Shown one piece after another: positions 20,006 through 58,159 of a DNA stretch of 64,000 nt (positions are counted from its first letter, which is position 1; the number at the start of each line of letters is the position of its first letter). The notes under the pieces are model-generated. The model did not search any database, was not told the origin of the DNA, and saw only the letters and a list, made by a program, of their open reading frames with translations. The stretch comes from Oscillospiraceae bacterium (GTDB taxonomy: Bacteria; Bacillota; Clostridia; Oscillospirales; Acutalibacteraceae), in the NCBI GenBank assembly GCA_003538135.1, contig DPOR01000005.1, positions 111,470 to 175,469 of the forward strand, read 5' to 3'. Both the position numbers and the translations under genes were made by a program.

Positions 20006-20040
20006 TGTTATCCTTAAAAACCGTGTCAAGGCCTTGCGTG

Positions 20041-24077: not shown

Positions 24078-24285
24078 AAGCCTTTCGCGGGTCGCTCTGC
24101 TCTCCGCAGACGGCCCGCGTTCTCGCAGGCTTACAAAAACTATGTGGCGCAGCGTTTTTCTGCTTTTCTGCATATTTTTTGCAAGTCCGCGGGATTTTTT
24201 GCGTTGTACAGAGGTGCTTTTATGCCGCGTTTAAACGCAAAAATCAATATCCCCCACCCTTCTTCCATGCAAAGGAGAGACGAAA

Positions 24286-25137: not shown

Positions 25138-25162
25138 GAAATCTACCGAAAGGGACTTGTCT

Positions 25163-25687
25163 ATGGGTCTCACAGCCGAAAAGAAAAGACTTATAATCCG
25201 ACGCGTGATATTCGCTCTTCTGCTTATCATCTGCGCCGTTATCCAGAACACCCCGAGACTTCTGCCCGAGCCGTTCGGCGCGCGTCAGCTCGGAGTGACG
25301 GTCATGGTCGTCTGCATAGCAATGTTCGAGCGCGAAACCGCGGGAATGCTCCTCGGTCTGCTCGCGGGCATCGTGCTCGATGTAACGGGCGGCACTCAGG
25401 GCATAAACGCCATTTTGCTGACCGCGTTCGGCCTTGCGTGCGGAATGCTCGTCAACAACATGATAAGAAATAATGTAGTCACCGCGCTGATTTTTTCCGC
25501 GTCGGCGCTGCTTATTCATACGTTCGTCTATTGGATAGTGTTCGTCGCCGCGGCGGGTGTCTCCGGCGGCAGACTTCTGCTCACCTTCTGCCTGCCGAGC
25601 GTGCTCTATTCGGTAATTTTTACGCCTCTTTGGTTCCTGATAATAAGAGGCATAAGCAGAGCTCTTCCGAGCGAAGTCAGAAGATAA
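25163..25687 (+). CDS. mreD: Rod shape-determining protein MreD
   Basis: Small polytopic membrane protein immediately after mreC. ATG at 25163 (AAAGGGA RBS). Confidence 0.75.
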   Translation: MGLTAEKKRLIIRRVIFALLLIICAVIQNTPRLLPEPFGARQLGVTVMVVCIAMFERETAGMLLGLLAGIVLDVTGGTQGINAILLTAFGLACGMLVNNMIRNNVVTALIFSASALLIHTFVYWIVFVAAAGVSGGRLLLTFCLPSVLYSVIFTPLWFLIIRGISRALPSEVRR

Positions 25688-25705
25688 GAGAAAGGAGGGA
25701 GCCCT

Positions 25706-27769: not shown

Positions 27770-27773
27770 TTAT

Positions 27774-28496
27774 ATGGCTGAGAAAATAGTTATCGCCTCC
27801 GGCAAGGGCGGCGTCGGCAAATCGTCGCTGACCGCAGGACTTGCGCGCGCGCTGAGCAATTCCGGCAAGCGGGTGCTCATGCTCGACATGGACATAGGGC
27901 TGCGCAGCCTCGACCTCATCTTCGGCACTCAAAAGGAGCTTCTCTTTGACTGGGGAAATGTACTCGACGGCGGCTGCGAGCCGAATCAGGCGGCTATCGC
28001 CGCGGGCGGGCCGATGCTGATGACTGCGCCCATGCATATGTCCGACTCCTTCACCGCCGAGAGCATAAAGGAGCTTGCGGACAGGCTCTCAAAAGATTAC
28101 GACTATATATTTTTCGACGCTCCGGCAGGGCTCTCCGACGGGTTCGAGCTCGCCTGCGCCGCCTCCGACAGGGGCATTGTTGTCTCCACCGCCGATGCGG
28201 TATGCGTCAGAAGCGTCAATATAACCGCGGGCGCCATGCGCTCCCTCGGTCTTGAGGACATAAGACTCGTTATCAACCGCTTCGACGAAAAGGCGGTCTG
28301 CAAAAAGAAGCTTTTAAACATCGACGACGTTATTGACGCTGTATGCGTTCAGCTCATCGGCATAGTTCCCGAGGACGCGGCGGTGTCGCACTGCGCGGTG
28401 CGCGGCGAACCGCTCCCGGCATCGAGCGCGGCGGCAAAGGCGTTTTCGCGCATAGCAAAGAGAATCGACGGCGGCGTTTCGCCGCTGCTGGGGTGA
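27774..28496 (+). CDS. minD: MinD/ParA-family septum-site-determining ATPase (MinD-like)
   Basis: MAEKIVIASGKGGVGKSS (deviant Walker A). No minC or minE neighbour in the window. Confidence 0.7.
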   Translation: MAEKIVIASGKGGVGKSSLTAGLARALSNSGKRVLMLDMDIGLRSLDLIFGTQKELLFDWGNVLDGGCEPNQAAIAAGGPMLMTAPMHMSDSFTAESIKELADRLSKDYDYIFFDAPAGLSDGFELACAASDRGIVVSTADAVCVRSVNITAGAMRSLGLEDIRLVINRFDEKAVCKKKLLNIDDVIDAVCVQLIGIVPEDAAVSHCAVRGEPLPASSAAAKAFSRIAKRIDGGVSPLLG

Positions 28497-28582: not shown

Positions 28583-28652
28583 TTTGCAGTAACTTGCGGC
28601 TATTCATTTTGTAGGGGGCGGCGACTCGACACATCAACGGCGGCAATGCCGC
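28583..28652 (+). repeat. Palindromic unit B with conserved 5' flank (aacttgcggctattcattttgtagggggcggcgactcgac...)
   Basis: Shares ttgcggctattca...gtaggg.gcggcgactcgac with 3850-3912. Confidence 0.75.
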
Positions 28653-28713
28653 AACATCCACCCTCCGTCTCACTGCCTGCCGCATATAAATCAACTCTTT
28701 CAGGAGAAACGCC

Positions 28714-29400
28714 ATGAAAAAACCGCGTTCCAAGAAAAAAACAATAATTTCCGTCCTCTGCGTGCTGCTTGCGCTCGCCGTATTGACCCCGTGCGCGATA
28801 AACGCCGCCGTGATGATAAGCGCGAGCAAGTATATCATCAGCGCGGACGAGGCGGCCGGGCGCGAGACGGACTGCGTATTGGTGCTCGGCGCAAGGGTAA
28901 ACTCCAACGGCACCCTGAGCCATATGCTCGAGGACAGAATGAGCACGGGCGTTGACCTGTATCAAGCCGGCGCGGGCAAAAAGATACTCGCCAGCGGCGA
29001 CCACGGCAGGGACTCCTACGACGAGGTCAACCATATGAAGCAGTACGCCGTCGGCAGGGGCGTTGACCCCGACGATGTGTTTCTCGACCATGCGGGCTTC
29101 TCGACCTATGAGTCGATGTACCGCGCCCGCGCCGTGTTCGAGGTCAAGAGCACGATAGTCGTCACTCAGAAATACCACCTCTACCGCGCGGTCTACAATG
29201 CGCGCCGCCTGGGTATCGACGCCTACGGCGTTGCGGCGGACAAGCGCGTCTACGGCAAGCCCGTATATAATTTTGTGCGCGAGAGCCTCGCCCGGTGCAA
29301 GGACTTCTTTATGTGCATTTTCAAGCCCGAGCCGACTTATCTCGGCGAGGTTATCCCGATAAGCGGCAGCGCGTCGCTCTCGGACGACACCGAATACTGA
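28714..29400 (+). CDS. sanA: SanA/YdcF (DUF218) family protein
   Basis: N-terminal TM; DCVLVLGARVNSNGTLSHML...ILASGDHG..., typical of DUF218. Confidence 0.75.
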   Translation: MKKPRSKKKTIISVLCVLLALAVLTPCAINAAVMISASKYIISADEAAGRETDCVLVLGARVNSNGTLSHMLEDRMSTGVDLYQAGAGKKILASGDHGRDSYDEVNHMKQYAVGRGVDPDDVFLDHAGFSTYESMYRARAVFEVKSTIVVTQKYHLYRAVYNARRLGIDAYGVAADKRVYGKPVYNFVRESLARCKDFFMCIFKPEPTYLGEVIPISGSASLSDDTEY

Positions 29401-29421
29401 CAGTTTCAAGGAGAAAGATAT

Positions 29422-30012
29422 ATGCGACTTGGCATTTTTGGCGGCACCTTCAATCCGCCGCACATGGGGCACATAAGGCTTGTTACCGCTATCGCGGACA
29501 AGCTGCAGCTCGACCATGTTCTCATTATTCCGGCGTCGGTTCCGCCGCACAAGCACGTCTTGAACCTTGCTCGCAGCAGGGACAGATTCGAGATGTGCCG
29601 CCTGAGCTTTGAGGGCGACCGTCGGTTTTCGGTCTCCGATACGGAGCTGCTCCGCGTGGGTAAGAGCTACACCTATGACACCCTCTGCGAGATAAAAAAG
29701 AAATATCCCGACGCAGAGCTGTTTTTGATAGTCGGTTCTGATATGCTCGCCACCTTTGACGAGTGGTACCGCTATCACGACATACTCATGATGTGCACCC
29801 TCTGCGCCGCCTCGCGCAAGCCGGGCTTCGTGCCCGAGCTCGAGGGCAAGTTCACGCCGGAGGAGATAGAAAAGATAAAATTCATCGAGATACCCGTTTT
29901 CGAGGTCAGCTCGACGCTTATCCGCCGCAGGCTCTCCGAGCGCGAGAGCACTCAGGGGCTTATATCCGACAAGGTGCGCGACTATATAGAACAAAAGGGG
30001 CTTTACACTTGA
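29422..30012 (+). CDS. nadD: Nicotinate-nucleotide adenylyltransferase
   Basis: MRLGIFGGTFNPPHMGHIRL (HxGH nucleotidyltransferase motif). Confidence 0.9.
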   Translation: MRLGIFGGTFNPPHMGHIRLVTAIADKLQLDHVLIIPASVPPHKHVLNLARSRDRFEMCRLSFEGDRRFSVSDTELLRVGKSYTYDTLCEIKKKYPDAELFLIVGSDMLATFDEWYRYHDILMMCTLCAASRKPGFVPELEGKFTPEEIEKIKFIEIPVFEVSSTLIRRRLSERESTQGLISDKVRDYIEQKGLYT

Positions 30013-30596
30013 ACGTACCCGAGAAATACAGAGAATATGACGAGCTTTTGAAATCCAAGCTCGACGAATACAGATACATTCACTCGCTCGGCGTTGCAAA
30101 GAGCGCAAGACACTTAGCCGAGCTCTACGGCTCCGACCCCGAAAAGGCCTATTTTGCGGGGCTTATGCACGACGTTATGAAGAACGCCGCGCCCGAGGAG
30201 CAGTTGCAAATGATAAAAAAAGCTGATATAATATTATCTTCATCCGAGCGCCTGAACCGCAAGCTCTGGCACGCGATTGCCGGGGCGGCTTTTTTGAAGC
30301 TGGAGCTTCATATCACCGACCCCGATATAATCGGCGCGGTGCGCTGGCACACGACGGGCAAGGCGGGCATGACGAAGCTCGAAAAGATAGTCTATCTCGC
30401 GGATTTCATAAGCGCGGACAGAAAATATCCCGATGTTGATAAGGTGCGCGAGCTCGCAGAGCACTCTTTGGAGGGCGCGATGCTCTACACCCAGAGATAC
30501 TGCATATCAAAGCTCCTCGCCGACGGAATGATAATCGACCCGTCGAGCGTGGACTGCTACAATGAACTTATAACCGAGAGGAGTTCAGAAGAATGA
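30009..30596 (+). CDS. yqeK: HD-domain bis(5'-nucleosyl)-tetraphosphatase YqeK
   Basis: TTG start overlapping the nadD stop (cTTGAa). HSLGVAKSARHLA...GLMHDVMK HD motif. The nadD-yqeK-rsfS order is conserved in Firmicutes. Confidence 0.75.
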   Translation: MNVPEKYREYDELLKSKLDEYRYIHSLGVAKSARHLAELYGSDPEKAYFAGLMHDVMKNAAPEEQLQMIKKADIILSSSERLNRKLWHAIAGAAFLKLELHITDPDIIGAVRWHTTGKAGMTKLEKIVYLADFISADRKYPDVDKVRELAEHSLEGAMLYTQRYCISKLLADGMIIDPSSVDCYNELITERSSEE

Positions 30597-34842: not shown

Positions 34843-34966
34843 AAATTTGCCCCGTATGTACCTTGCATACGGGGATTTTTTTGCTCAAAATTTTTGCGTG
34901 CATTCTTTATATTTTTTGTTGACCTTTTATATTTCTTTTGCTAAACTTGTGATAGGAGGGATACAT

Positions 34967-36475
34967 ATGGAAAAACTGCGAAAAACCCTATATGACGTTC
35001 TTATATTCATCGTCTCGCTCTGTATCACGGGGTCTATCTCCGTCTCAAACGTAAAAACCAAGGACACGAGCCACATCAATCTAACCGTTGACGAGACCGC
35101 CCGGCAGCAGGAGATTCTGGGCTGGGGCACCGCCGGAGCCTGGTGGCCGCAGGTCGCGGGCGCGAGTGATAACGCCGAGGAAATTGCCAAGCTGCTCTTC
35201 AGCAAGGATGGTCTCGGGCTCAATATTTACCGCTTCAACGTCGGCTCCGGTTCAAAGCAGAATCCCAATTCGCGCCTTGACCCCGACTCTTGGAAGAGCA
35301 CCGTGAGCTTCCTTGTCTATAACGAAAAGACGGGCAAGTATGAGTACGACTGGTCGCAGGACGCCGCATCGATGAAAATGCTCGACCTCGCCATGAGCTA
35401 CGGCTGCGTGGATTCCGTCGTCCTCTTCTCGAACTCCCCCCACTTTTCAATGACAATCACCGGTCAGGCGAGCGGCGGCTTCAAAAAGCATCAGAACAAC
35501 TTAAAGCCCGAATGCTATCAGGAATATGTCGATTATTTCCTTGACATAACCGAGCACTTTATCGAGCTCGGCTATCCTATCAAGTATATCAGCCCCGTCA
35601 ATGAGCCGCAGGTGTCCTGGGGCGGCGACGACGTCTATCAGGAGGGCTGCCACTATGATACCGAGGAGCTTTTCAAGCTCTACCGATTGTTTGCAAAATC
35701 CATAAAAGCGCGCGGACTCAACGTCAAGATGTCAATATGCGAGGTTTCAAAAATAACCAGCAAGACATTCGATTATCTCACTTATATCTATAATGATCCG
35801 GAGCTGCGCGAGGTTCTCGGCACCTATGCTTATCACGCCTATTGGTCAGATTACAATTATTATCTCAAGACTCTTTGGGGCAATTCCGCAAAAAAGCATC
35901 CCGGAATTATCTACGATATGTCCGAATGGTGCGAGCTGCCGACGAGGTTTAAAAATCAGGATATCAGAAACGCCCTGCGAATGGGTCAGGTCATAGCGAT
36001 GGATATGACCCTGTCTCATCCCTCCATGTGGTCATCATGGGTAGCCGTCAGCGAGGGCGACGATTACGGCGACGGACTGATAATCGCAAACCACGATTGC
36101 AGCGAGTTTCGTCTTGCCAGACGCTATTATGCGACGGCTCACTTCTCGAAGTTCGTTCCCGTCGGCAGTCATCTTATCTCCTGCACGAAGGATGTCAATG
36201 ACCGCTACGGAACAAGAAAAAAGAAAAAACTCGAATGCTTTTTCGCTTTCCGCTCGAACATCGCCGCATACCTCACTCCGGAGGGAAAAGTGGTCGTCGT
36301 AATAGTCAATAACGACAAGGAGCGCACCATAACCTTCAACGGCATCGACGGCAGAGACTCTCTCAAGCTCTATACAACAGACAGCAAGCGAAGTCTGGAG
36401 CTCACCTATGACGGAGACTACCGGCAGACAGTGACCGTCCCCGCCTACAGCATCACCACGGCAATATTCGAATAA
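34967..36475 (+). CDS. Secreted glycoside hydrolase, GH30-like (tentative family)
   Basis: Trimmed to MEKLRK (GGAGGGA RBS). Signal/TM segment. (beta/alpha)8-like core plus C-terminal beta-sandwich pattern. Family assignment is tentative. Confidence 0.55.
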   Translation: MEKLRKTLYDVLIFIVSLCITGSISVSNVKTKDTSHINLTVDETARQQEILGWGTAGAWWPQVAGASDNAEEIAKLLFSKDGLGLNIYRFNVGSGSKQNPNSRLDPDSWKSTVSFLVYNEKTGKYEYDWSQDAASMKMLDLAMSYGCVDSVVLFSNSPHFSMTITGQASGGFKKHQNNLKPECYQEYVDYFLDITEHFIELGYPIKYISPVNEPQVSWGGDDVYQEGCHYDTEELFKLYRLFAKSIKARGLNVKMSICEVSKITSKTFDYLTYIYNDPELREVLGTYAYHAYWSDYNYYLKTLWGNSAKKHPGIIYDMSEWCELPTRFKNQDIRNALRMGQVIAMDMTLSHPSMWSSWVAVSEGDDYGDGLIIANHDCSEFRLARRYYATAHFSKFVPVGSHLISCTKDVNDRYGTRKKKKLECFFAFRSNIAAYLTPEGKVVVVIVNNDKERTITFNGIDGRDSLKLYTTDSKRSLELTYDGDYRQTVTVPAYSITTAIFE

Positions 36476-38221: not shown

Positions 38222-38776
38222 TCAGCCGCCGAAAAGCCTTTTCAACGCATCTCTCTCCGATATGCACCTCCAGTGCTCGCGGGTATGCGATGCCGAGAAG
38301 GGCGAGTCTATCGGCGTGCCGAACTCGCTTAATATGTGCTCGGGCGCGTCGGTCGGGCTTTCGCCCATAAGCAGGCGGTATCTGCCCTCCGACTCGTAGA
38401 GCCCGCCGCTTTCGCAGCGTCCGCCGAGCGCGTGCGCCGCGTCCATGACGGCGTCGAGCGAACAAAACTCGTATACGGCGGTATTTTCCCCCTTCTTTAT
38501 CGACGGGGTGCGGACCGCACGCGAGCCGTCGGCGCAGAGGGTGAACTTCAAAATGCACCCGCCCCTGCCTGCAGGTACGGCCTCGATTATCATCCGCCCG
38601 CTCGGGTCGATGTCGCGTTTTAATTCGTGACCCGCTCGGTCGAGCAGGGTCCAGACCACGCGGCGCGTCTCGATATTCGAGTAGTCCATCTGCTCGTATG
38701 TAATGTTGAGCGCGTCCATGTCGCGCGCCGAGAGCTCGATGGTTATCCTGTTTTCCGCCGGCGCAAGTATCTTCAA
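38222..38776 (-). CDS. mecA: Adaptor protein MecA-like
   Basis: MKILAPAENRITIELSARDMDALNITYEQMDY... N-domain and C-terminal ...YEFCSLDAVMDAAHAL...GGLYESEGRYRLLM...EHILSEFG resemble MecA. Confidence 0.6.
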   Translation of the reverse strand: MKILAPAENRITIELSARDMDALNITYEQMDYSNIETRRVVWTLLDRAGHELKRDIDPSGRMIIEAVPAGRGGCILKFTLCADGSRAVRTPSIKKGENTAVYEFCSLDAVMDAAHALGGRCESGGLYESEGRYRLLMGESPTDAPEHILSEFGTPIDSPFSASHTREHWRCISERDALKRLFGG

Positions 38777-38894
38777 GCGCTTCCCCTCCTTATAAATCAG
38801 AAAGTCTCTGCCTTATATAATATTACGCGCCCCCTCGGCGTGCAATGCAAAATTTTTGCCAGCTGAAAAAAAGGCAAAAAGAAAGGTTGATTTT

Positions 38895-39902
38895 ATGGCA
38901 AAATTCAAACGCATAAAAACGCCTAAAAGTCCCTACATGAGCTATCTGCTCATGCTCGCCGCTCCCGCGATAGTCGCCTGGTATTACTACGGCGCGTTCG
39001 CGTTCAGGGCGATACTTACGGGAGTAGTCAGCGCGGCAGCCGTTGAGGCCGTCGCTCTGCTGATAATGAAAAGGAATCTGAGTCTCCTGTCCGATATGCA
39101 CGCGGTGTTTACGGGACTTGCCGTAGCCATGCTCCTGCCCGCCACGGCTCCCGTCTGGCTGATAGCCTCGGGCGCCGTCTTTGCCGTTCTCGTTGCAAAG
39201 ATACCGTTCGGCACCGCGCATAAGGCTCCGTTCGTGCCTGCCGCGGCGGGAATTGCGTTTTTGACGGTCTGCTTCCCGGACGAGGTTTTCAAATATCCCG
39301 CCATTGACTCCGCGTCGTTCGACGTCTTTGAGGCGGGCTCCTCCCTCGCCGCTCAGCTGAGCGCGGGCGGAATACAGCACGTAAACTCAGTCGGCATAAT
39401 GTCGATAATCTCCGGCAACGTAGCAGGCGCTCTGGGCACCTGCTGTTCCGTAGCGCTGCTCGGCTCCTGCGCCCTGCTCGCCGTCGGAAAACCCAAGAGG
39501 CTCATAAACGTCCTCGGCTTTCTCACCGTGTGCTCCCTGCTTGCGGTAATTTTCCCGCGCGGCTCGTTTTCAAGACCGGTGTCCCTGCTCACGGAGCTCT
39601 GCGCCGGCAGCCTGCTCTTCTCCTGCATTTTCTTCGTCACCGACCCCGGCACAAGCCCGAAGCCCCCGCTGACAAGATTTATCTACGGCGCGTTCGCCGG
39701 ACTTATATGCATGATCCTGCGTTACTTCGGCACGTTTGAGGACGGCACCTGCTTCGGCATACTGCTCACAAACGCCTTTTGGCCGCTGGTCGAAAGCGCG
39801 CTGAGAAAGATAGGCTACAACAGGCTCATTGAAAAATCCATGAAAAAAAGCGCGGAAAAGAAAAAGCGGAAAGCAGCGTTAAAGGGAGGTGAGCCGGCAT
39901 GA
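38895..39902 (+). CDS. RnfD/NqrB-family polytopic membrane protein, divergent (FMN-attachment Thr motif not conserved)
   Basis: Trimmed to MAKFKRIKTP (GAAAGG RBS). RnfD-like helix pattern. At the position of the SGAT flavinylation motif it reads EAGSSLAA. Confidence 0.7.
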   Translation: MAKFKRIKTPKSPYMSYLLMLAAPAIVAWYYYGAFAFRAILTGVVSAAAVEAVALLIMKRNLSLLSDMHAVFTGLAVAMLLPATAPVWLIASGAVFAVLVAKIPFGTAHKAPFVPAAAGIAFLTVCFPDEVFKYPAIDSASFDVFEAGSSLAAQLSAGGIQHVNSVGIMSIISGNVAGALGTCCSVALLGSCALLAVGKPKRLINVLGFLTVCSLLAVIFPRGSFSRPVSLLTELCAGSLLFSCIFFVTDPGTSPKPPLTRFIYGAFAGLICMILRYFGTFEDGTCFGILLTNAFWPLVESALRKIGYNRLIEKSMKKSAEKKKRKAALKGGEPA

Positions 39903-40879
39903 AGTCAGGCAAAAAGTATTCATTCTCCGACGCGCTGTTCAGCAGCACGCTCATTCATAACCCCGTGCTCATTCAGGCTGCGGGCCTCTGCGCGATAGTC
40001 GCGGTCGCAACGACCCTCAAGACGGCCGTTTTGCTCGCGGCGGCGTTCTTCCCCGTGCTTATAATCACGCAGTTTTTCGCCTGTTTGGCTCTCAAGCGCG
40101 TGCCGAGATGGATAAGAGTTGCGATATATCTGCTCCTCGGCACGGCAATAATCTCCGGTATAATCTACGCCATTGATATCTTTGTGCCGGAAATCCGACT
40201 GGGCGCGGGAATATATCTCGCCCTGACGGCGGCGAACTCGATAATCGCACTGCACTGCGAGAAGCTCGCGGTCAAGACCGACCTGCGCCACGCATTTTTT
40301 GACTCCGTGGCAACCGCGCTCGGCTATGCGGCGGTCATTATTCCCGTCGGCGCTCTGCGCGAGATAATAGGCTCGTCCACAATATGGGGCGTAAACATCA
40401 GAATCCCCGTTATATATCCGGCGGTGCTCATGCCGTTCGGCGGATTTATATTTATCGCATTCTTCGCCGCCGCGCTCAAGGCGCTGATAAACAAGCGCTT
40501 CCCAGAGCAGTCGGCAGAGACCGAGATGAAGATAAAGAAAACCTCGGTTATAGTCAGCAAGAAGAATCTTCCCGAAAATGCGGCTCCCGCCAAGGCGGAG
40601 GAGACTCCCGACGCAGAGGAGAGCGTTGAAAGCGAAGAAAGAACCGAGCCCGAGGAGACGGCAGAGACCGTCGAGGTTATTGAAACCGTTGAGGTCACGG
40701 AGGAAGAACCGGATGACCTGTCCCACTTCGAGCCGCTCGACGGCGACAACAGCTTTGATTTGGCGGATATCTTTGCCGACGACGAAAACGACGGCAAGGA
40801 CTACGGCTCGGCGTTCAACCGCCTCTTTGACGAGGCAGAAGATTTTAACTCCGACGAAAAGAAGGAGGGAGACAAATGA
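39899..40879 (+). CDS. RnfE/NqrD-family membrane protein with ~130-aa acidic C-terminal extension
   Basis: NPVLIQAAGLCAIVAV (LGLCP-like). The second conserved motif TNCIILG reads AANSIIAL (Cys to Ser). Tail EETPDAEESVESEERTEPEETAETVEV...DDENDGKDY. Confidence 0.75.
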   Translation: MKSGKKYSFSDALFSSTLIHNPVLIQAAGLCAIVAVATTLKTAVLLAAAFFPVLIITQFFACLALKRVPRWIRVAIYLLLGTAIISGIIYAIDIFVPEIRLGAGIYLALTAANSIIALHCEKLAVKTDLRHAFFDSVATALGYAAVIIPVGALREIIGSSTIWGVNIRIPVIYPAVLMPFGGFIFIAFFAAALKALINKRFPEQSAETEMKIKKTSVIVSKKNLPENAAPAKAEETPDAEESVESEERTEPEETAETVEVIETVEVTEEEPDDLSHFEPLDGDNSFDLADIFADDENDGKDYGSAFNRLFDEAEDFNSDEKKEGDK

Positions 40880-41475
40880 ACATGACCTGGTTTTTTGATC
40901 TGCTCTCCACCGCGCTCTACACCGTGTTCATTCAGAACCTCGTCTTTAACGGCGGCTATGCGGCGAGCGAGGCGCTCATGCTCGCAAAGAAGCCGCGCAG
41001 GCTCTGGATGTTCTCGGCGATGATAGCATTCTTCTCGACCGTTACGGCTCTCGCCTGCCGCGCACTCGAGCTTGTCCCGCAGCACGCCAATCTGCCTGCG
41101 GCTCTGCATTTTGCGATGTACAGCGCCGTGCTAATAGTTGTGTTCCTGATAACGGGTCTTATTCTCAAGCTCGCCCTCGGCGCTACCGAGAAGTTCCTCG
41201 GCACGCTCGGCATGGCGGCGCTCAACACCCTTGTGCTCGCAACGCCCCTGCTCAACCGCAGCGCGGCCTACACCGTTCCCGAGAGCATCGGCTCCGGCAT
41301 AGGCGCGGGTCTTGCGTTCATCCTTGCGGCAACGCTCATATGCAAGGGACTTCACATAATCTCGCAGAATCAGGATATTCCCAAGGCCTTCCGCGGCACC
41401 CCGGCGGCGTTTATCTATGTCGCCCTGCTCTCGCTCGCGTTCTCCGGCTTCTCGGGAAGCTCCCTGTTCTCATAA
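40876..41475 (+). CDS. RnfA/NqrE-family membrane protein, both conserved Cys absent
   Basis: C-terminal IPKAFRGTPAAFIYVALLSLAFSGFSG matches the RnfA [27 protein letters not shown]. The LGLCP and TNCAVLG Cys positions read NGGYAAS and ALNTLVLA. Confidence 0.75.
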   Translation: MNMTWFFDLLSTALYTVFIQNLVFNGGYAASEALMLAKKPRRLWMFSAMIAFFSTVTALACRALELVPQHANLPAALHFAMYSAVLIVVFLITGLILKLALGATEKFLGTLGMAALNTLVLATPLLNRSAAYTVPESIGSGIGAGLAFILAATLICKGLHIISQNQDIPKAFRGTPAAFIYVALLSLAFSGFSGSSLFS

Positions 41476-41535
41476 ATAAATTTTACGCCGCAGGCGGTCT
41501 GTCATACCGGCACGCGGCGCAAAGGATGATGAAAA

Positions 41536-42648
41536 ATGGCAAAGCGCAGCAAATATGATAAGTATTTTTCACCCGGCACTCACAGGAGCATAACCGAATT
41601 CAGCAAGAATGCTGCCGGCGGCTCGAAGCGCCGCAAAAGCTACTCCGAGCGCAGGCGCAACAGAACAGTGGGCATAGTCCTCGCGTGTATTTTAGGCGCG
41701 GCTGCTGTATTCACTGCGGCATTTTTTGTCACCGACACGCTCCTGGGCATCTCCGACTCCGAGGTTAAAACCACCGTCGCCCCCGGCAAGAGTGATAAGG
41801 GCAACAAGGGCGGCTCAAACGACACCACCGCGCCCGCCGCAAACCCGCAGAGCTCCGGCGAGCTGAAGGCTCGCGTCGGCAATGTCTCCCTGCTCGCGGG
41901 CGGAAGCGGACTCGACAGCTATATAGCCTCTCTCAAAAGCGCAGGTCAAAATGCCGTTGTTATAGACTTCAAGGACGCGTCCGGCTACCTCTCTTATCCC
42001 TCGTCGATAGCGGCGGTCAAGGACAAGACCCCCTCGTCAAAGGCTCAGGCCAATGCCGCTCAGAGCATAAAGAAGCTTCAGCAGTCCGGCATAAAGGTCG
42101 TTGCGCGAATATACTGCTTCAAGGATTCGCAGATGCCGCGCGTTGACCGAACCACGGCCGTTCACTACAACAAGACACAGACTATCTGGCTCGACAATGA
42201 GGCGTCCAAGGGCGGCAAGCCGTGGCTCAATCCCTATTCCGAGGCGGCTCGTAATTATCTTCTCGAAGTCGTAAAGGAAGTGAAGAACCTGGGCGTCGAC
42301 GTGATATTGCTCGACGGCGTGCAGTTCCCCGACCTCAACTCAAAAATAGCGACGTTTGACGGCGAGGGCTCGGTATCGAGAAACGCCGTGCTCATAAACT
42401 TCGTCAACTCCTGCGTCTCCGCGTGCTCGGGCACGCCCGTTATCTGCGCGATGAAGGGCGAGGCTGCGGCAGGCGGCAGCAGCGAGATATATAACGGCTC
42501 TCTCTGGAGCGCGAACGCCTACGCCTTTGCGGTAGACCTCAGCTCCCTCAAGGCGGACTTTAAACGCAGCTTCCCCGCCTCAAAGAAAGTAATCGAAATC
42601 AAAGCCTCGGCCTCAAATGCCGACAGCACATATATTTTAACAAAGTAA
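41536..42648 (+). CDS. Membrane-anchored DUF4015-type putative glycoside-hydrolase-like TIM-barrel protein
   Basis: N-terminal TM; AVVIDFKDASGYLSYPS, VVARIYCFKDSQMPR, PWLNPYSEAARNYLLEVVKEVKNLGVDVILLDGVQFPD match the DUF4015/GHL pattern. Confidence 0.6.
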   Translation: MAKRSKYDKYFSPGTHRSITEFSKNAAGGSKRRKSYSERRRNRTVGIVLACILGAAAVFTAAFFVTDTLLGISDSEVKTTVAPGKSDKGNKGGSNDTTAPAANPQSSGELKARVGNVSLLAGGSGLDSYIASLKSAGQNAVVIDFKDASGYLSYPSSIAAVKDKTPSSKAQANAAQSIKKLQQSGIKVVARIYCFKDSQMPRVDRTTAVHYNKTQTIWLDNEASKGGKPWLNPYSEAARNYLLEVVKEVKNLGVDVILLDGVQFPDLNSKIATFDGEGSVSRNAVLINFVNSCVSACSGTPVICAMKGEAAAGGSSEIYNGSLWSANAYAFAVDLSSLKADFKRSFPASKKVIEIKASASNADSTYILTK

Positions 42649-42664
42649 ACAAAGGCCGATAAAA

Positions 42665-44521
42665 ATGCATTTTATTCCCTACAATTCAAGAAAAAAATAT
42701 CACCTCTCGCCCGGCGCGGCAGTGCGCTCGGGTGAGAAAATGACCTTCAGAATAGTCCTGCCCCGCTCGGAGCAGTGCAGCGCGGTTCGCCTTGTGCTTG
42801 AGCCGGACTGCGGCGGCAGAGAGGATATCTCTTTCTCCTGGGAGAGAATGCAGGGCGAGGACGAGGAATGGTGGCGGCTCGAGACCGCCGCGCCCGAAAA
42901 AGAGGGCCTTGTCCGATACCATTTTGAATATGACACTCCGTGGGGTGAGAGGGAGATATCTCTTGAAAGCGGCGGCATCGCCGTAATGGGCGAGGGCGAG
43001 CGCTGGCGGCTGACGGTTTGCGGCGAAAACAGCGACACTCCCCTGTGGCTGCGCGGCGGAGTTATGTATCAGATTTTCCCGGACAGATTCCGTCGCTCCG
43101 GCAAAACTCCCCTTCCCAAGGACAAGCCCGCGGCAGTCTACCACTCCGAGTGGGGCGAGGAGCCCGACTGGGAGCCCGACTCCGACGGCATGATAGACAA
43201 ATACGACTTTTTCGGCGGCGACCTCAGAGGCATAGAGGAAAAGCTCGACTATCTCGAGAGTCTCGGCGTCACCTGCATATATTTGAACCCGATATTCTCC
43301 GCCCGCTCGAACCACCGCTACGACACGGGCGACTACATGAAAATCGACCCGATGCTCGGCACGGAAAAGGATTTCAGAAGTCTTTGCAGAGCGGCCGCTA
43401 AGCGCGGAATAAAAATTTTGCTCGACGGCGTGTTCAGTCACACCGGCGCAGACAGCAAATATTTTGACAAATTTTCAACTTACGGCGGCAAGGGCGCATA
43501 TTGCGACAAAAATTCGCCCTACCGTTCGTGGTATAATTTTCGAAGCTGGCCGGACGATTACGCCTGCTGGTGGGGCGTTGACATTCTGCCGGAGCTCAAC
43601 GAGACCGATCCCGGCGTGTTGGATTTCCTGACAGGCAGACACGGCGTTGCGCGGCATTGGCTCCGCCTCGGCGCATCTGGCTGGCGGCTCGACGTCGCAG
43701 ACGAGCTGCCCGACGAATTTCTCGACCGCTTCCACGACGCAGTCAGAAAAGAGAAAAAAGACGCGTTCATCTACGGCGAGGTCTGGGAGGACGCGACCGA
43801 TAAGATAAGCTACGGCCACCGCCGCAGATACCTTGAGGGCGGCGAGCTGGACAGCGTGATGAACTACCCGTTTGCAAACGCTGTTATAGACTTCGTGCGC
43901 ACGGCGAATGCCGAAAATCTGCGCGAATGCGTGGAGAATATAGTCGAGCACTATCCCCGCGCTTCGCTCGACACGCTGATGAACCATATCGGCACTCACG
44001 ACACCGTGCGCGCCCTGACCCGACTCGGACGAGGAGATGTCCCCCGCCCCGAAAACGGGCGCGACAGGGGCATTATGACCGACGAGCAATATAAAAAGGG
44101 AGTTGAGCTTTTGATGCTCGCCTCCGTTTTGCAGTTCACCCTCCCCGGCGTTCCCTGCGTCTATTACGGCGACGAGGCGGGACTCTCGGGCGGCGAGGAT
44201 CCGTTCAACCGCGCCTGCTTCCCGTGGGGGCATGAGAACAAAGAGCTGCTCGAGCACTATAAAACGCTCGGCAGGATAAGAAAGCTCTGCCCCGCGTTTG
44301 TCGACGGCGAGTTCAACTGCATATCGGCGGTTCTCGGCTGCATCGCCTACGAGCGTATCTCGGACACGGGCTGCGCGCTGATAATCGCAAACGCAAACGA
44401 CCGCGATATAGAATACCGCGTCCCCGAGTGCTGGCGAAACGCGCCCGCTCTTTTCGGCAAGGCGGCATACGGGCGCTCCGTCTCGGTAGGCGCACATTCG
44501 GCAGTAATTTTGCATAGATAA
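42665..44521 (+). CDS. GH13 alpha-glucosidase family enzyme, neopullulanase/cyclomaltodextrinase-like
   Basis: N-terminal CBM34-like domain; YQIFPDRF; GIKILLDGVFSHTG; GWRLDVADE; EVWE; NHIGTHDT (GH13 regions I-IV). Confidence 0.85.
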   Translation: MHFIPYNSRKKYHLSPGAAVRSGEKMTFRIVLPRSEQCSAVRLVLEPDCGGREDISFSWERMQGEDEEWWRLETAAPEKEGLVRYHFEYDTPWGEREISLESGGIAVMGEGERWRLTVCGENSDTPLWLRGGVMYQIFPDRFRRSGKTPLPKDKPAAVYHSEWGEEPDWEPDSDGMIDKYDFFGGDLRGIEEKLDYLESLGVTCIYLNPIFSARSNHRYDTGDYMKIDPMLGTEKDFRSLCRAAAKRGIKILLDGVFSHTGADSKYFDKFSTYGGKGAYCDKNSPYRSWYNFRSWPDDYACWWGVDILPELNETDPGVLDFLTGRHGVARHWLRLGASGWRLDVADELPDEFLDRFHDAVRKEKKDAFIYGEVWEDATDKISYGHRRRYLEGGELDSVMNYPFANAVIDFVRTANAENLRECVENIVEHYPRASLDTLMNHIGTHDTVRALTRLGRGDVPRPENGRDRGIMTDEQYKKGVELLMLASVLQFTLPGVPCVYYGDEAGLSGGEDPFNRACFPWGHENKELLEHYKTLGRIRKLCPAFVDGEFNCISAVLGCIAYERISDTGCALIIANANDRDIEYRVPECWRNAPALFGKAAYGRSVSVGAHSAVILHR

Positions 44522-44542
44522 CACAAAGACCGAGGTGATCGA

Positions 44543-45430
44543 ATGTCAAAGAAAAAGGGAATGAGATTTCGCACGACGCAGGAGAAAAAGACGAGGCAGT
44601 TTCGCCTCTTTTTCCTGGGCTTTATCGCCTTCCTGCTCGTTTTCGCGCTTATCTCCGTAGCCTATATGTTTAAATCGCATCATCTCTCGATAAAGGACCT
44701 TCTGCCCGAAAAGACGAGCGACTCGACCGACGAAAGCACGGATGAGGCTCTTGTGCCCTTAGACGGCAGCGCGACCTTCATGCTCGCGTGCGTCTCGGAC
44801 GACGGGGACGACTTGTACTTAGTCGCCGCGGTGAACGCGGAGTTAAGCTCCGGCGAGGTGCGCGTATGCGCCTTTGATCCGAACACCCGGGTTGACGTCT
44901 CCGGAAATAAGAATTCCCTCAAGGGGCACTATTCGGAGGGCGGCACAAAGGCACTCAAAAGCGCGGTAGACGCGCTGTGCGGCTTCACCGCAGAGCGGTA
45001 TGCCGTCTCGACCGCGAGCCAATTCAAAAATGCCGTAAACGTGCTTGACGGCGCGCAGATAACCGTGCCCGAGCGCGTGAGCTACAAGACAAAGGAGCTC
45101 TCTCTTTCGCTCATGCCCGGCAATCAGACAATAAAGGGCGAGACGCTGCTGAAATATTTCCGCTATTTCCTGACCCCGTCGGGCGGCGGAGCCATAAAGC
45201 AGAGTGAGCTGCTCTGCGTGATGTTTTCGCAGTATATCAACAAGACCTATCTCGCCTCCGGGCGCAACTACTTCTCGCAGATAGTGAATTCTTTGGACAC
45301 CGACATATCCATCGTCGATTTCTCGCGCTGCGAAAGCACGCTCTCGGCTATGGCGGCGAGAGATATAGATTATTCCGCCGTGTCATCTGTTGACGAGCTG
45401 AATGCCGCTCCCGACAGGCGCGGAAAATAA
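44543..45430 (+). CDS. LytR-CpsA-Psr (LCP) family protein
   Basis: N-terminal TM; TFMLACVSDDGDD..YLVAAVN...VRVCAFDPNTRVDV resembles the LCP core. Confidence 0.55.
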   Translation: MSKKKGMRFRTTQEKKTRQFRLFFLGFIAFLLVFALISVAYMFKSHHLSIKDLLPEKTSDSTDESTDEALVPLDGSATFMLACVSDDGDDLYLVAAVNAELSSGEVRVCAFDPNTRVDVSGNKNSLKGHYSEGGTKALKSAVDALCGFTAERYAVSTASQFKNAVNVLDGAQITVPERVSYKTKELSLSLMPGNQTIKGETLLKYFRYFLTPSGGGAIKQSELLCVMFSQYINKTYLASGRNYFSQIVNSLDTDISIVDFSRCESTLSAMAARDIDYSAVSSVDELNAAPDRRGK

Positions 45431-45463
45431 ACCGTTCGGACTTAAAACAAGGGGGTAGGCAAA

Positions 45464-46591
45464 TTGACAAAAAAGCTTCTGCGACTTGCGTCGCTTTTGC
45501 TCGCGCTTATACTTATCTTCTCAGGCTGTTCGCTGCTTGAAGAAGAAGATACCGTTCCCCCGTCCGAAGAATCGGCCGCCTTCGGCAGCTTCAAGCACTA
45601 CTTCGCAAAGCTAAACGAGGACGAGAAGCGCGCCTACAATGCCGTTTTGCGCGACATTGAATCGTTCCCCGAGGAGATTGAAATACCCGAGCTTGATAAC
45701 GGCGAGCTTGAAAACGTCTGGCTCGCCCTGATGTACGACAATCCGGAGCTGATGATGCTCGGGCGCGAGTGCGTGCTCGTCGCAAGAGGGCGAAAGTACT
45801 TCTTCAGCTGCGAATATTCCATGACGAAAGAGGAATATGAGCAGAAAAAGGCCGAGCTTAAATTGAAGGCAGATGAGCTCGGAGCTAAAATAGAAAAAGA
45901 GACTTCTGATTTTGACAAGGAGCTGCTTATCCACGACGCAATAATCGACTCGTGCAGCTACGCGGACTCCGGTCAGCTCATAGCGAGCTCCGCCTACGGC
46001 GTGCTCGTCGAGGGCTCTGCCTCATGCGAAGGCTACGCAAAGGCCGCAAAGCTCCTGCTCGACAGAGCCGGGATAGATAACTACGTCATAACCGGCACCG
46101 CAACGCGCGACGACGGCGAGAGCGAGGGTCATATGTGGAACGTCGTCTTTCTCGACGGTCAGCCCTATAACTTAGACCTCACCTGGGATGACCCTATAGG
46201 CGAGGGCGCGGAGCAGAACAAGCGCTATGCCTATTTCAACATCACCGACGAAGAGCTTCTGAAAACTCACACGTTTTTTGACGAGGCTCCCTGCTGCACG
46301 GCAACGGACTTCAACTATTTTATAAAGCTCGGCAGACAGTTTGACAGCTACAACGCGGAGACGAAATCCGCGCTCTCGAAGCTGTTCGGGGGGCTCAAAT
46401 CAGGCGGCAAGCTCGATATCAGGTTCTCGTCGGATAAGGCTTACAGAGCCGCCCTCAACGGGCTGATAAAGAAAGAGGAAATCTACCGAATTCTGAGCGT
46501 CGCCGACGCGGGCAGGCGCGGCTTTTCAACGACGCAGATAAACTATATCACCGACGACACCCACCGTGTCATCGAATTTATTCTCGTATAA
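45464..46591 (+). CDS. Transglutaminase-like superfamily lipoprotein
   Basis: [11 protein letters not shown] lipobox. Catalytic-triad-like [15 protein letters not shown]...GHMWNVV...DLTWDD. Confidence 0.65.
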
Positions 46592-48412: not shown

Positions 48413-48919
48413 ATGGCAAACTGTATGCAGGCAGTTATAGGTATCGGTTCAAACATGGGGGACAGATTGAAGAACATAAACGGCGCCGTGCGCTCTCTGT
48501 CCCGCCTTCCAAAGACAAAAATAACGGCGTGCTCCCACGTCTACGAAACAAAGCCCATGGGCTACGAGGATCAGTCGATGTTTTATAACGCCGCGGTAAC
48601 TGTGGAGACGGAGCTCTCCGCGCAGATGCTGCTCGGCGCGTGCCTCGGCATCGAGGGCGCTTACGGGCGCATAAGGACGATAAAGGACGGGCCGCGCGTG
48701 CTCGACCTCGATCTGCTGCTCTATGAGGGCATGAAGAGCGAGAGCTTTCTGCTCACCCTGCCGCATCCGAGAATATTCGAGCGCGCTTTCGTGATGGTTC
48801 CGCTGCTCGACCTGTTCCCGTCCGGCAGAGCTCCCGGACTCTTCTTCCTGCCCGCTCTTCACGAGACAGGCTCGGACGGCGTTGAAAAAATAAACGAAGA
48901 GATAACTCTTCCCGAATAA
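48413..48919 (+). CDS. folK: 2-amino-4-hydroxy-6-hydroxymethyldihydropteridine pyrophosphokinase
   Basis: AVIGIGSNMGDR...PRVLDLDLLLY...LPHPRIFERAFV. Confidence 0.85.
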   Translation: MANCMQAVIGIGSNMGDRLKNINGAVRSLSRLPKTKITACSHVYETKPMGYEDQSMFYNAAVTVETELSAQMLLGACLGIEGAYGRIRTIKDGPRVLDLDLLLYEGMKSESFLLTLPHPRIFERAFVMVPLLDLFPSGRAPGLFFLPALHETGSDGVEKINEEITLPE

Positions 48920-48935
48920 AGAACGAGGTGTACAA

Positions 48936-50339
48936 ATGAAATACGACGTAGTTATCATCGGCGCGGGCCCTGCCGGAATATTCACGGCTATCGAGCTTAT
49001 CCGCAAGGGCGCGAACAAGAAAATAATGATGGTCGAAAAGGGTCAGCCGATCGAAAAGCGCCGCTGCCCCAAATCGAAAACAAACAAGTGCGTCAACTGC
49101 AAGCCCTATTGTCATATCACCACGGGCTTCTCCGGCGCGGGCGCGTTCTCGGACGGCAAGCTGTCGCTGAGCCCCGAGGTCGGCGGTCAGCTCCCTGAGC
49201 TCATAGGCTATGAGACCGCTCAGGAGACAATAGAATATGCCGACAGCATCTACCTCGAGTTCGGTGCGGACACCCATGTTGAGGGCGTCGGCCGCGAGGA
49301 GGAGGTCAAGGAGATAAGAAAGCGCGCCATAAAAGCGGGTCTTCGCCTTGTCGACTGCCCGATACGCCATCTCGGCACGGAGAAGGCGCAGGATATCTAC
49401 TACGCCATCGAGCAGTATCTCATAGAAAACGGCGTCGATATGCTCTTCGGCTACGAGTGCGACAATATAATCCTCGACGGCGACCGCTGCAAGGGCGTCT
49501 ATGTCCGCAAGGGCGAGGAGAACATAGAGATATTCGCGGAGCACACCGTAATAGCGACAGGGCGCCGCGGCGCGGACTGGCTCGAAAAGCTCTGCGCTCA
49601 GCATGATATCTCCCATCAGCCCGGCACAGTCGATATCGGCGTGCGCGTCGAGATAAGAAACGAGATCATGGAGAAGGTCAACGACGTTCTCTACGAGTCG
49701 AAGCTCATCGGCTATCCCAAGCCGTTCAAGAACAAGGTTCGCACGTTCTGCCAGAATCCCGGCGGCTTCGTCAGCCAGGAGAACTACGACAACGACCTCG
49801 CCGTCGTCAACGGACACTCCTACAAGGAGCTCAAGAGCAACAACACGAACCTCGCCATACTCTGCTCCCACAATTTCAATCAGCCGTTCAATCAGCCCAT
49901 TGAATACGCGCAGAAGGTCGGCGAGCTGACAAATATGCTCGGCGCGGGACACATTCTCGTCCAGCGCTACGGCGATATCCTCGACGGCAAGCGCACATGG
50001 CAGAAGGAGCTCGACCGCTCGAACGTCAGACCGACGCTCCCCGATGCCGTCGCGGGCGACATAACCGCCGCCATGCCCTACCGCGCCATGCTCAACATAA
50101 TCAACTTCATCCAGGCCGTGGACTACGTCGTGCCCGGCTTCGCCGCCGAGGAGACGCTGCTCTACTCCCCCGAGCTCAAGTTCTACTCCAACCGCATCAA
50201 GATGGACGAAAACTTCGACACGAACGTCAAGGGACTCCACTGCCTCGGCGATTCGAGCGGCTGGACAAGAGGTCTTATGATGGCCTCCGTCATGGGCGTG
50301 CTCATGGGCAGAAGCATAGCGGACAGATACAAAAAGTAA
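48936..50339 (+). CDS. FAD-dependent protein (COG2509-type NAD(FAD)-utilising dehydrogenase)
   Basis: MKYDVVIIGAGPAGIF (Rossmann GxGxxG); 467 aa. Downstream terminator ACCCCCGGAGA-N9-TCTCCGGGGGT (about 50362-50392). Confidence 0.7.
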   Translation: MKYDVVIIGAGPAGIFTAIELIRKGANKKIMMVEKGQPIEKRRCPKSKTNKCVNCKPYCHITTGFSGAGAFSDGKLSLSPEVGGQLPELIGYETAQETIEYADSIYLEFGADTHVEGVGREEEVKEIRKRAIKAGLRLVDCPIRHLGTEKAQDIYYAIEQYLIENGVDMLFGYECDNIILDGDRCKGVYVRKGEENIEIFAEHTVIATGRRGADWLEKLCAQHDISHQPGTVDIGVRVEIRNEIMEKVNDVLYESKLIGYPKPFKNKVRTFCQNPGGFVSQENYDNDLAVVNGHSYKELKSNNTNLAILCSHNFNQPFNQPIEYAQKVGELTNMLGAGHILVQRYGDILDGKRTWQKELDRSNVRPTLPDAVAGDITAAMPYRAMLNIINFIQAVDYVVPGFAAEETLLYSPELKFYSNRIKMDENFDTNVKGLHCLGDSSGWTRGLMMASVMGVLMGRSIADRYKK

Positions 50340-50508
50340 AGCATATTCATATAAAAAATTACCCCCGGAGATTTTTTCAAGTCTCCGGGGGTTAATTATA
50401 AAAAGCGAAGAGAAAAAACGATTTCTGCCGCTCACGGCAAAGCTGTTTCTTTCGCCCGCATAAAAAACCGCATTGAAAAAGGCACTTGCAACCGCAAGTG
50501 CCTTTTTC

Positions 50509-57152: not shown

Positions 57153-57171
57153 TTGTGTCCTCCCCTTTCGC

Positions 57172-57948: not shown

Positions 57949-58039
57949 AACGAAGACTCCTTTGCCTTTTTCGGCCAAAAATACTGCAAAAATTATACCA
58001 CAACGCCCCGAAAAGGTCAATCGGAATATTGTACAGCGA

Positions 58040-58055
58040 TGTTTCACGTGAAACA
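58040..58055. promoter_or_regulatory. parS centromere-like site (TGTTTCACGTGAAACA)
   Basis: Perfect 16-bp palindrome matching the Firmicute parS consensus tGTTNCACGTGAAACa, between noc and soj. Confidence 0.8.
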
Positions 58056-58159
58056 TTGAAACAGCAAAGCGGCAGGTTTTATATAAAAACCTGCCGCCCT
58101 GCCGTGATGTGGGGTGTGAAAGAGAAAGATATGGTAATGGGAGATTGTCTGTTTTATGC

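Follow-up and report, generated by a model that had tools for sequence, protein, structure and literature searches.

An Rnf-derived membrane module with degenerate cofactor sites and no RnfC, RnfG or RnfB in a lineage of Oscillospirales

Rnf (RnfCDGEAB) and Na+-NQR (NqrABCDEF) are among the closest known relatives of the module described here, which consists of genes for D-like, E-like and A-like membrane proteins and a fourth partner, X. It lies in a 64,000-nucleotide stretch of DNA (hereafter, the window) from an Oscillospiraceae bacterium (assembly GCA_003538135.1, contig DPOR01000005.1, positions 111,470 to 175,469 of the forward strand). RnfA and RnfE are inverted repeats of each other, have broken helices and alternate as a pair between inward- and outward-facing states, and RnfD/NqrB is structurally related to Amt/urea channels. 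Where ions cross these complexes, through RnfA/E or through RnfD/NqrB, is openly debated (PMC12174285). In A. woodii, Kumar et al. tied individual residues to Na+ entry and gating by cryo-electron microscopy (cryo-EM), molecular dynamics and mutagenesis. Two reduced arrangements are also on record. In the two-subunit Nqr/Rnf-like complex, found mainly in Actinobacteria and the candidate phyla radiation (CPR) and devoid of an E/A pair, an RnfD-like domain is fused to the NqrF NAD-binding domain (PF00175) and accompanied by an RnfG/NqrC-like FMN_bind flavoprotein, within a gene cluster for flavinylation (PMC8238504). The second was listed by Liu et al. 2020 as an "incomplete Rnf" in isolate BL-6, which has Ech and no complete Rnf operon. 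BL-6 genes 3464-3469 encode, in this order, a conserved exported protein, putative rnfA, rnfE, rnfD and rnfC, and a conserved unknown protein; rnfG is missing from the cluster, and a lone RsxB-like gene is found elsewhere. BL-4 and CPB6, both Acutalibacteraceae, have full rnfCDGEAB operons (PMC7764203).

On sequence grounds, the module in the window is descended from the membrane core of Rnf, having lost [2Fe-2S] ligands and the riboflavin-binding Asn, with no RnfC, RnfG or RnfB. Our favored reading, advanced tentatively, is that it represents a lineage-specific, Rnf-derived membrane unit made of D-like, E-like, A-like and bitopic X proteins (the latter carrying DUF4015 here), which would translocate an ion or a solute independently of redox chemistry. 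Its components are as follows.

38895-39902 (+): D-like gene, RnfD/NqrB-like polytopic subunit of 335 amino acids, ATG start
39899-40879 (+): E-like gene, complete open reading frame (ORF)
39899-40498 (+): E-like membrane domain, RnfE/NqrD-like, amino acids 1-200 (PF02508, 102 bits)
40499-40879 (+): acidic low-complexity C-terminal tail of the E-like protein
40876-41475 (+): A-like gene, RnfA/NqrE-like subunit of 199 amino acids (PF02508, 68 bits)
41536-42648 (+): X, fourth partner, bitopic anchor plus DUF4015 (PF13200, 98.7 bits)

Both the D/E and the E/A junctions are ATGA stop/start overlaps, which confirms the three consecutive, translationally coupled genes described in an earlier sequence-only reading of this DNA; the D-like gene has an alternative TTG start at 38856. 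The same reading had recognized D/NqrB-, E/NqrD- and A/NqrE-like proteins, an identification borne out by Pfam (PF03116 at 191 bits for the D-like protein, PF02508 for the other two) and by residue-level alignments to solved Rnf/Nqr chains (7ZC6, 9ERI, 8AHX, 7XK3). These alignments correct its statement that the A-like C terminus is near-identical to that of RnfA, the two being only similar. All NCBIfam Rnf/Nqr models score far under their cutoffs (rnfD, 138.8 vs 207; rnfE, 75.6 vs 213; rnfA, 48.1 vs 229). This indicates that the three proteins are divergent members of the superfamily rather than orthologs of characterized subunits. The profile of the D-like family matches RnfD (7zc6_D) with an E-value of 1.8e-51, scoring 178 bits against RnfD and 85 bits against NqrB. 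The D-like protein aligns only to residues ~159-407 of NqrB, leaving the quinone-site N-terminal helices uncovered, and PF03116 is its sole domain, without the PF00175 NAD-binding domain.

No redox partner is encoded nearby. Pfam searches of the cluster genes and of 30 of the larger remaining ORFs of the window revealed no RnfC, RnfG, RnfB, FMN_bind or ApbE, and none of these was found within 10 kb on either side in six related loci, as the sequence-only reading had claimed for RnfC/G/B around this locus. Genes for NqrA, NqrC and NqrF were likewise absent from the scanned window ORFs. A profile built from RnfC-like proteins of relatives matched none of the window ORFs, and the RnfC-like hidden Markov model (HMM) found no RnfC-like ORF in 91 loci, its only matches being in L092, L094 and L095. 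The sole Fe-S protein found in the window is a [FeFe]-hydrogenase-like protein encoded 36 kb from the module (1475-2815, minus strand). It has 4Fe-4S ferredoxin motifs at its N terminus and a PF04060 "FeS" domain at its C terminus, and its context is unrelated to RnfB/C. Two other candidates were rejected. ORFs with ferredoxin motifs in L009 and L031 are short antisense artifacts. A gap of ~800 bp between D and E in ~14 loci, a conceivable place for RnfG, encodes a CAP/SCP (YkwD-like) lipoprotein with an S/T/P-rich linker (e.g., L040:10946-11749). This insertion characterizes one subclade (L038-L040, L048, L049, L059, L062-L065, L070, L078, L086 and L088), in which rpe is no longer upstream.

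The [2Fe-2S] site is degenerate throughout the family (residue statistics were taken over 86 D-like, 77 E-like and 73 A-like orthologs). Alignment to the solved Rnf/Nqr chains upheld the manual alignment of the sequence-only reading, by which the A-like protein lacks both ligand cysteines and the E-like protein keeps one. The first Cys of the E-like protein is C31 in the window and is present in 70/77 orthologs. The second is replaced by S114 (AANS vs TNC), with Ser in 66/77 and Cys in none of the 77. In the A-like protein, the first Cys is S31 (Ser in 67/73), followed by E32 (Glu in 72/73) in place of the canonical RnfA Pro, and the second is T118 (Thr in 67/73, Ser in the other six). Among 111 full-length A-like top representatives recovered by phmmer, none has the canonical Cys-Pro...Asn-Cys. 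Since ligands have been lost family-wide, and since mutation of the [2Fe-2S] cysteines abolishes activity in A. woodii (PMC11889175), the alignments indicate that the cluster is gone in this family. A new metal site formed by E-C31, E-C120 and A-C61 was considered and rejected as unlikely; judging from predicted topology and the known topology of RnfA/E, these residues would lie mid-membrane, at the cytoplasmic end and at the outer end, respectively.

As for the flavins, RnfD N123 of A. woodii is a riboflavin ligand, and the N123A mutant is inactive (PMC11889175). The corresponding D-like residue is V114 in the window and Val (67), Ser (17) or Ile (2) in the 86 orthologs, the Asn being retained in all four outgroup loci (L090, L092, L094 and L095). 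At the position of another riboflavin ligand, D249, Asp is found in 61/86 and Glu in 16/86. In the region of covalent flavinylation, D-like "DVFEAGSS" overlies "DGVTTAT", with "EAGSS" over "TTAT/SGAT". ApbE recognizes the motif D-x-x-[S/T]-G-A-[S/T], accepts Ser, and G->A or A->V mutants keep about half of the flavinylation (PMC12052999). Where the acceptor of flavin mononucleotide (FMN) falls depends on the register. In the HMMER register, obtained from three profile-to-structure alignments, it is position 149, where 50/86 have Thr/Ser, and S150 comes at +1. In a gapless register anchored on the downstream [I/L]-L-K, and in MAFFT alignments with intermediate sequences, it is S150, conserved in 84/86. 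The motif is degenerate in both cases: its Asp is not conserved, and the Ala at -1 is Gly in the HMMER register and Thr/Ser/Val in the other. In L090 and L095, the acceptor position is Gly. The sequence-only reading had placed EAGSS at the FMN-Thr site and counted this site among the substituted ones; the overlay stands, whereas a loss of flavinylation is less clear, with S150 at or beside the acceptor in 84 of 86 orthologs.

These data bear on whether the module could be a residual, one-way redox conduit. Here, S150 of the D-like protein, flavinylated by ApbE, would pass electrons to an extracytoplasmic acceptor, a cytoplasmic donor would replace the truncated RnfC seen in relatives, and the E/A pair would be structural. 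The near-invariance of S150 and its coincidence with the FMN-Thr in two registers speak for it, together with the tolerance of ApbE for Ser and for changes at the neighboring Gly and Ala. So do the RnfC remnants of relatives (see below), which have two intact 4Fe-4S motifs and sit directly upstream of D, and the precedent of the two-subunit Nqr/Rnf-like complexes. However, the riboflavin Asn, a bridge between FMN and RnfC, is missing from 86/86 members of the clade and kept in the outgroups, and there is no RnfC-like ORF in the window or in the 91 loci. Moreover, the HMMER register places the acceptor at a position that is Thr/Ser in only 58%, the motif has lost its Asp and its -1 Ala, L090 and L095 have Gly at the acceptor, and no FMN_bind or ApbE gene is nearby. 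We regard such a conduit as unlikely. Because the riboflavin ligand is lost and partners are missing, any flavinylation of the D-like protein is unlikely to support electron transfer.

In contrast to the cofactor sites, most residues with a role in Na+ entry and gating according to Kumar et al. are still in place. RnfE R67 corresponds to R73 of the E-like protein (77/77), E115 to E121 (75/77), N107 to N113 (73/77) and L103 to L109 (65/77, the remainder being Ile/Val), while RnfA N112 corresponds to N117 of the A-like protein (73/73). In the D-like protein, the NqrB constriction residues F338 and F342 are represented by F242 (86/86) and F246 (82/86), NqrB D346, the equivalent of RnfD D249, is represented by D/E250 (77/86), and E234 is invariant. 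The family has signatures of its own as well: E-like C120, in 77/77, takes the place of Ala in G-R-A-E, and A-like C61 is found in 71/73.

On the favored reading of redox-independent translocation, the four subunits D, E, A and X would be co-transcribed, and the pseudo-symmetric E/A pair would keep the alternating-access fold along with the residues by which Na+ enters and is gated. Where the cluster used to be, at mid-membrane, the pair would present Cys/Ser/Ser/Thr and a buried Glu, and it would move a cation or a small polar solute without electron transfer. The D-like protein would act as an associated Amt/urea-type channel or as a stabilizing subunit, X would tether the core to an extracytoplasmic glycan-active domain, and the acidic tail and the MecA-like neighbor (see below) may have a role in regulating the complex or in its turnover. 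A related version makes the E/A pair a stand-alone transporter with its substrate site built from the Cys/Ser/Ser/Thr and the buried Glu, the D-like protein a flavin-free channel, and X the coupling to the glycan-active domain; we consider it doubtful.

Several points weigh against translocation by the module. The A-like equivalents of RnfA T110 and E88 are not conserved, and the conserved "Na+" residues could have been kept for folding alone. The residue after the former first A-like Cys is Glu in the window's clade and Arg in related clades, and a Glu or Arg at this site could equally be a structural plug or part of an ion site. According to Kumar et al., RnfD conducts no Na+ at all. In addition, S150 may still carry FMN.

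The fourth partner, X, extends the module beyond the trio that the sequence-only reading had described as stand-alone: the lack of C/G/B neighbors holds, but the trio is not alone, given the X homologs and the truncated RnfC of relatives. A homolog of X follows the A-like gene in 69 loci, in 43 of them as a short form of 73-182 amino acids (anchor only) and in 26 fused to DUF4015. Its constant part is the N terminus, in which a cytoplasmic stretch, basic and marked by the motif R-[K/E]-S-I-T-E-F-S...S-Y-E-E (R-S-I-T-E-F-S in the window), precedes one transmembrane (TM) helix (amino acids ~47-65 in the window) and a juxtamembrane T-D-x-L-x-x-I-[S/T]-E-x-P motif. In the window protein, a disordered linker then leads to DUF4015. 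The N-terminal 46 amino acids of the window protein include 14 K/R, and the DUF4015 domain is therefore expected to face outward. The latter scores 98.7 bits against a gathering score of 27. In an AlphaFold2 model (pLDDT 78 overall, >90 in the barrel), it forms a (beta/alpha)8 glycosidase-like barrel, for which Foldseek returned first the uncharacterized Cthe_0052 (4s1a) and then GH31, GH20, GH36 and GH114 barrels; a sequence search of the PDB with DUF4015 matched only 4s1a. TM-anchored DUF4015 persists next to D-E-A in L090, whose A-like protein is only ~28% identical, and in L095, from Hydrogenoanaerobacterium saccharovorans.

The E-like tail is variable. The acidic tail reported by the sequence-only reading is real, with 42 D/E among 133 residues (residues ~200-326 in the window protein), but it is not a defining feature, since it ranges from 14 to 495 amino acids among orthologs (median 140; pooled composition 26% D/E and 22% S/T/P) and is absent in the outgroups. 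Its predicted location is the cytoplasm, given that RnfE has an N-in/C-in topology. Many tails, including that of the window protein (40700-40876), terminate in a short amphipathic motif (DLDEFLRSLGID or SAFNRLFDEAEDF, for example) that is surrounded by acidic low-complexity sequence and is possibly a partner-binding element. At the C terminus of the D-like protein, a "K-G-G-E" (39860-39902), kept across D-like proteins, overlaps the GGAGG-type ribosome-binding site of the E-like gene; its conservation is thus probably at the nucleotide rather than the protein level.

Two further features adjoin the module upstream.

38222-38776 (-): MecA-like gene, C-terminal ClpC-binding-type domain (PF05389, 49.4 bits, amino acids 91-181)
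38777-38894: intergenic region of 118 bp between the MecA-like and D-like genes, with a TATAAT-like box

The MecA-like gene is divergent from the module, and the promoter region is common to both. It adjoins D in 74 loci and also in the distant L090, L094 and L095, which suggests a functional link to the module, and rpe is upstream of the module in 68 loci. The MecA-like protein clears the PF05389 threshold (49.4 vs 22.5 bits) and falls far below that of the NCBIfam MecA equivalog (23.7 vs 224); a PDB sequence search with it gave no match. Rfam gave no credible match in the region upstream of the module, neither a riboswitch nor another known RNA element, and the intergenic gaps of 38895-46591 contain no intrinsic-terminator-like site. 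Downstream, Pfam identifies the DUF4015, GH13, LCP and transglutaminase-like genes just as the sequence-only reading had named them. Its proposed link to the cell envelope or glycans finds support in DUF4015 alone. The genes for GH13, LCP and the transglutaminase-like lipoprotein lie downstream in 37-40 of ~77 loci, about half, and are missing from L001, L006-L008 and L090.

With the anchor and its surroundings in view, an inert scaffold has to be weighed, in which D-E-A transports nothing and is a platform positioning X/DUF4015 and perhaps envelope enzymes, the tail recruiting cytoplasmic factors. It would accommodate the retention of the X anchor in the 43 loci where DUF4015 has been lost, the long variable tail with its amphipathic motif and the envelope-related neighborhood in about half of the loci, and the buried Glu/Arg at the former cluster site could simply fill a cavity. 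Yet the gating ion pair, the Asn residues of the half-helices and the constriction Phe pair of the D-like protein are conserved at nearly 100%, more than a passive scaffold needs, purifying selection (see below) is strongest on the A-like protein, with a substitution ratio down to 0.07, and three polytopic proteins with ~22 TM helices make a costly anchor. A scaffold without transport thus appears unlikely.

Distant members of the family suggest how the module arose. In L095, from the cultured H. saccharovorans (GCA_003814745.1), the order is rpe, MecA-like (opposite strand), an RnfC-like gene of 356 amino acids, D, E, A and TM-DUF4015. L094 has rpe, MecA-like (opposite strand), an RnfC-like gene of 411 amino acids, D, E and A; L092 has rpe, an RnfC-like gene of 340 amino acids, D, E and A; and L090 has rpe, MecA-like (opposite strand), D, E, A and TM-DUF4015. 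The RnfC-like remnants are located directly upstream of D.

L095:6635-7705: RnfC-like remnant
L094:1472-2707: RnfC-like remnant
L092:5384-6406: RnfC-like remnant

The remnants align to RnfC over its C-terminal half only (E=4e-17). Both CxxCxxCxxxC motifs are intact, and the FMN/NADH glycine loop is lost, "GMGGATFP" being replaced by "DE[TR]DG...". They recall the cofactor-less NqrA, yet retain an Fe-S domain. None of the four loci contains RnfG or RnfB, and none has all four [2Fe-2S] Cys. The distant members, all located at one and the same place in the chromosome, form a reduction series, from truncated RnfC plus D-E-A (with or without X) to D-E-A-X. By this comparison of gene content, the D-E-A-X of the window is the most reduced form of an Rnf-derived lineage in which neither G nor B was seen in any locus.

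The C-D-E-A cluster of BL-6 probably belongs to the same lineage, as suggested by its gene order and taxonomy. This matters for the possibility that the trio provides alternative membrane subunits, which would swap into a canonical Rnf encoded elsewhere and use its RnfC/G/B. That some Acutalibacteraceae, such as BL-4 and CPB6, have a full rnfCDGEAB operon (PMC7764203) would make a host complex available. However, without a [2Fe-2S] cluster, electrons could not pass from RnfB to RnfG, as borne out by the inactive Cys mutants of A. woodii (PMC11889175). Furthermore, BL-6 appears to have C-D-E-A without rnfG or a complete Rnf operon (PMC7764203), and the module has a dedicated X and, in relatives, its own RnfC remnant. 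As regards INDEPENDENCE from canonical Rnf, dependence of the module on canonical Rnf is unlikely if the BL-6 cluster is of the same lineage, because BL-6 has C-D-E-A and Ech without a complete Rnf operon. Overall, we consider a subunit swap very unlikely.

The module is widespread. The sequence-only reading had proposed profiling it across Oscillospiraceae/Ruminococcaceae, and when one genome from each GTDB species was scanned with a degenerate pattern, using a 13-sequence subset as query alignment, D-like relatives were found in at least 285 genomes. The best 80 of these 285 matches are all labeled Acutalibacteraceae, Oscillospiraceae, Ruminococcaceae or unclassified Clostridia, the nearest relative among them being Acutalibacteraceae bacterium SVS042 (89% identity). 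A census of these loci counted 88 D, 78 E and 77 A genes, the trio being intact on every contig of sufficient length. A phmmer search with the A-like protein against 1.84 billion representatives gave 147 matches at E<=1e-10 and 542 at E<=1e-3. Ratios of nonsynonymous to synonymous substitution rates (dN/dS), computed pairwise between the window and three orthologs, are 0.07-0.16 overall for D, the E membrane domain, A and X. By part, they are 0.12-0.14 for the D-like protein, 0.10-0.15 for the E-like membrane domain, 0.07-0.10 for the A-like protein and 0.16-0.23 for the E-like tail. The module is thus intact in hundreds of species of Oscillospirales, with strong purifying selection acting on it.

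The same data dispose of the idea that the module is a decaying, functionless remnant of an rnf operon. The progressive loss of subunits and ligands along L094/L095, L092, L090 and the window might have suggested decay. However, all loci of sufficient length have intact ORFs with translational coupling, and dN/dS values are low (0.07-0.16), with many family-specific invariant residues. Because of the intact ORFs across loci and the low dN/dS, this explanation is effectively refuted, and its probability is close to nil.

These findings matter in several respects. First, reconstructions of energy metabolism from metagenome-assembled genomes (MAGs) of abundant gut and rumen Oscillospirales can wrongly credit Rnf, since D-like proteins are named as Rnf subunit D in public records and one genome paper counted a partial Rnf. 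Second, a naturally cofactor-free core that keeps residues implicated in Na+ handling provides a system for studying transport separately from electron transfer. If redox-independent translocation is true, the Rnf/Nqr membrane-core fold would have in the module its first natural member that works independently of redox chemistry, and a natural "cofactor knockout" able to settle the ion route, RnfA/E vs RnfD/NqrB. Third, the passage from full Rnf to truncated RnfC plus D-E-A (with or without X), and then to D-E-A-X, documents that the core of a respiratory pump can be repurposed, and by what stages. Finally, the system should be tractable, as there are cultured carriers, H. saccharovorans and probably BL-6.

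The rest of the window has features of its own. A PF03458 "Gly_transporter" gene (10596-11279, +) is directly preceded by a tandem glycine riboswitch at 10398-10547 (+), whose two aptamers score 56.9 and 41.4 bits. An SpoVT-type regulator (9805-10344, +), composed of SpoVT_C and an AbrB/MazE-like N-terminal domain, suggests that the host is or was a spore-former. On the minus strand, 56283-63860 encodes a ParB-like protein, ParA and a second ParB/Noc-like protein, then mnmG and mnmE, an arrangement typical of origin-proximal regions, and the module is thus ~20 kb from there. A fucose-utilization set with two FGGY kinases and an L-fucose isomerase occupies 16667-22240 (+), and mreC, mreD, a PBP2-type transpeptidase and a MinD/ParA-like ATPase occupy 24286-28496 (+). 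Four large ORFs of 359-560 amino acids have no Pfam match at E<=1e-4: 8433-9629 (+), 23094-24173 (-), 28600-30108 (-) and 48753-50435 (-). An ORF of 542 amino acids (34847-36475, +) lies between an Xaa-Pro peptidase-like gene and an HAD gene.

How does the module compare with known systems? Our literature search (RnfD-like, RnfA-like, Rnf-Nqr, DUF4015, sporulation and Rnf) returned no description of it, and in public records the D-like protein is called "RnfABCDGE type electron transport complex subunit D", whereas the E-like one is entered as a "hypothetical protein". The sequence-only reading knew of no described system of this composition, and none matching it turned up in the literature searched, although the C-D-E-A of BL-6 had already been listed as an "incomplete Rnf" (PMC7764203). 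If the BL-6 cluster is indeed of this lineage, the module has been noticed once and never analyzed. The BL-6 cluster shares the X-A-E-D-C'-MecA layout of L095, the absence of rnfG and the family Acutalibacteraceae; it differs in retaining an RnfC-like gene, lost in the window's clade, and it figures only in a supplementary table, as a partial Rnf.

With Rnf (7ZC6, 8AHX, 9ERI), the module shares homologous D, E and A subunits and the gene order D..E-A. It keeps the RnfE R67-E115 pair, N107 and L103, RnfA N112 and the equivalents of RnfD F245 and D249, and its relatives carry an RnfC remnant upstream of D. Unlike Rnf, it has no RnfG/RnfB in any locus and no RnfC in the window's clade, only one of the four [2Fe-2S] Cys, no riboflavin Asn and a degenerate flavinylation motif. 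The bitopic/DUF4015 subunit and the acidic tail of variable length on E are additions relative to Rnf, and the NCBIfam scores are under cutoff. With Na+-NQR (7XK3, 8A1W), the correspondence is D to NqrB and E/A to NqrD/NqrE, with equivalents of NqrB F338, F342 and D346 kept, but NqrA, NqrC, NqrF, the cluster ligands and the quinone-site N-terminal helices are absent. The two-subunit complex (Meheust et al. 2021; Huang et al. 2024) is likewise a reduced Rnf/Nqr derivative, whose RnfD-like subunit has no conserved flavinylation Thr; in contrast to it, the module keeps the E/A pair and has neither the NAD-binding domain nor the FMN_bind protein. Amt/urea channels and alternating-access symporters, whose way of working a cofactor-free core would share, offer a functional analogy only, drawn from published structural comparisons (PMC12174285).

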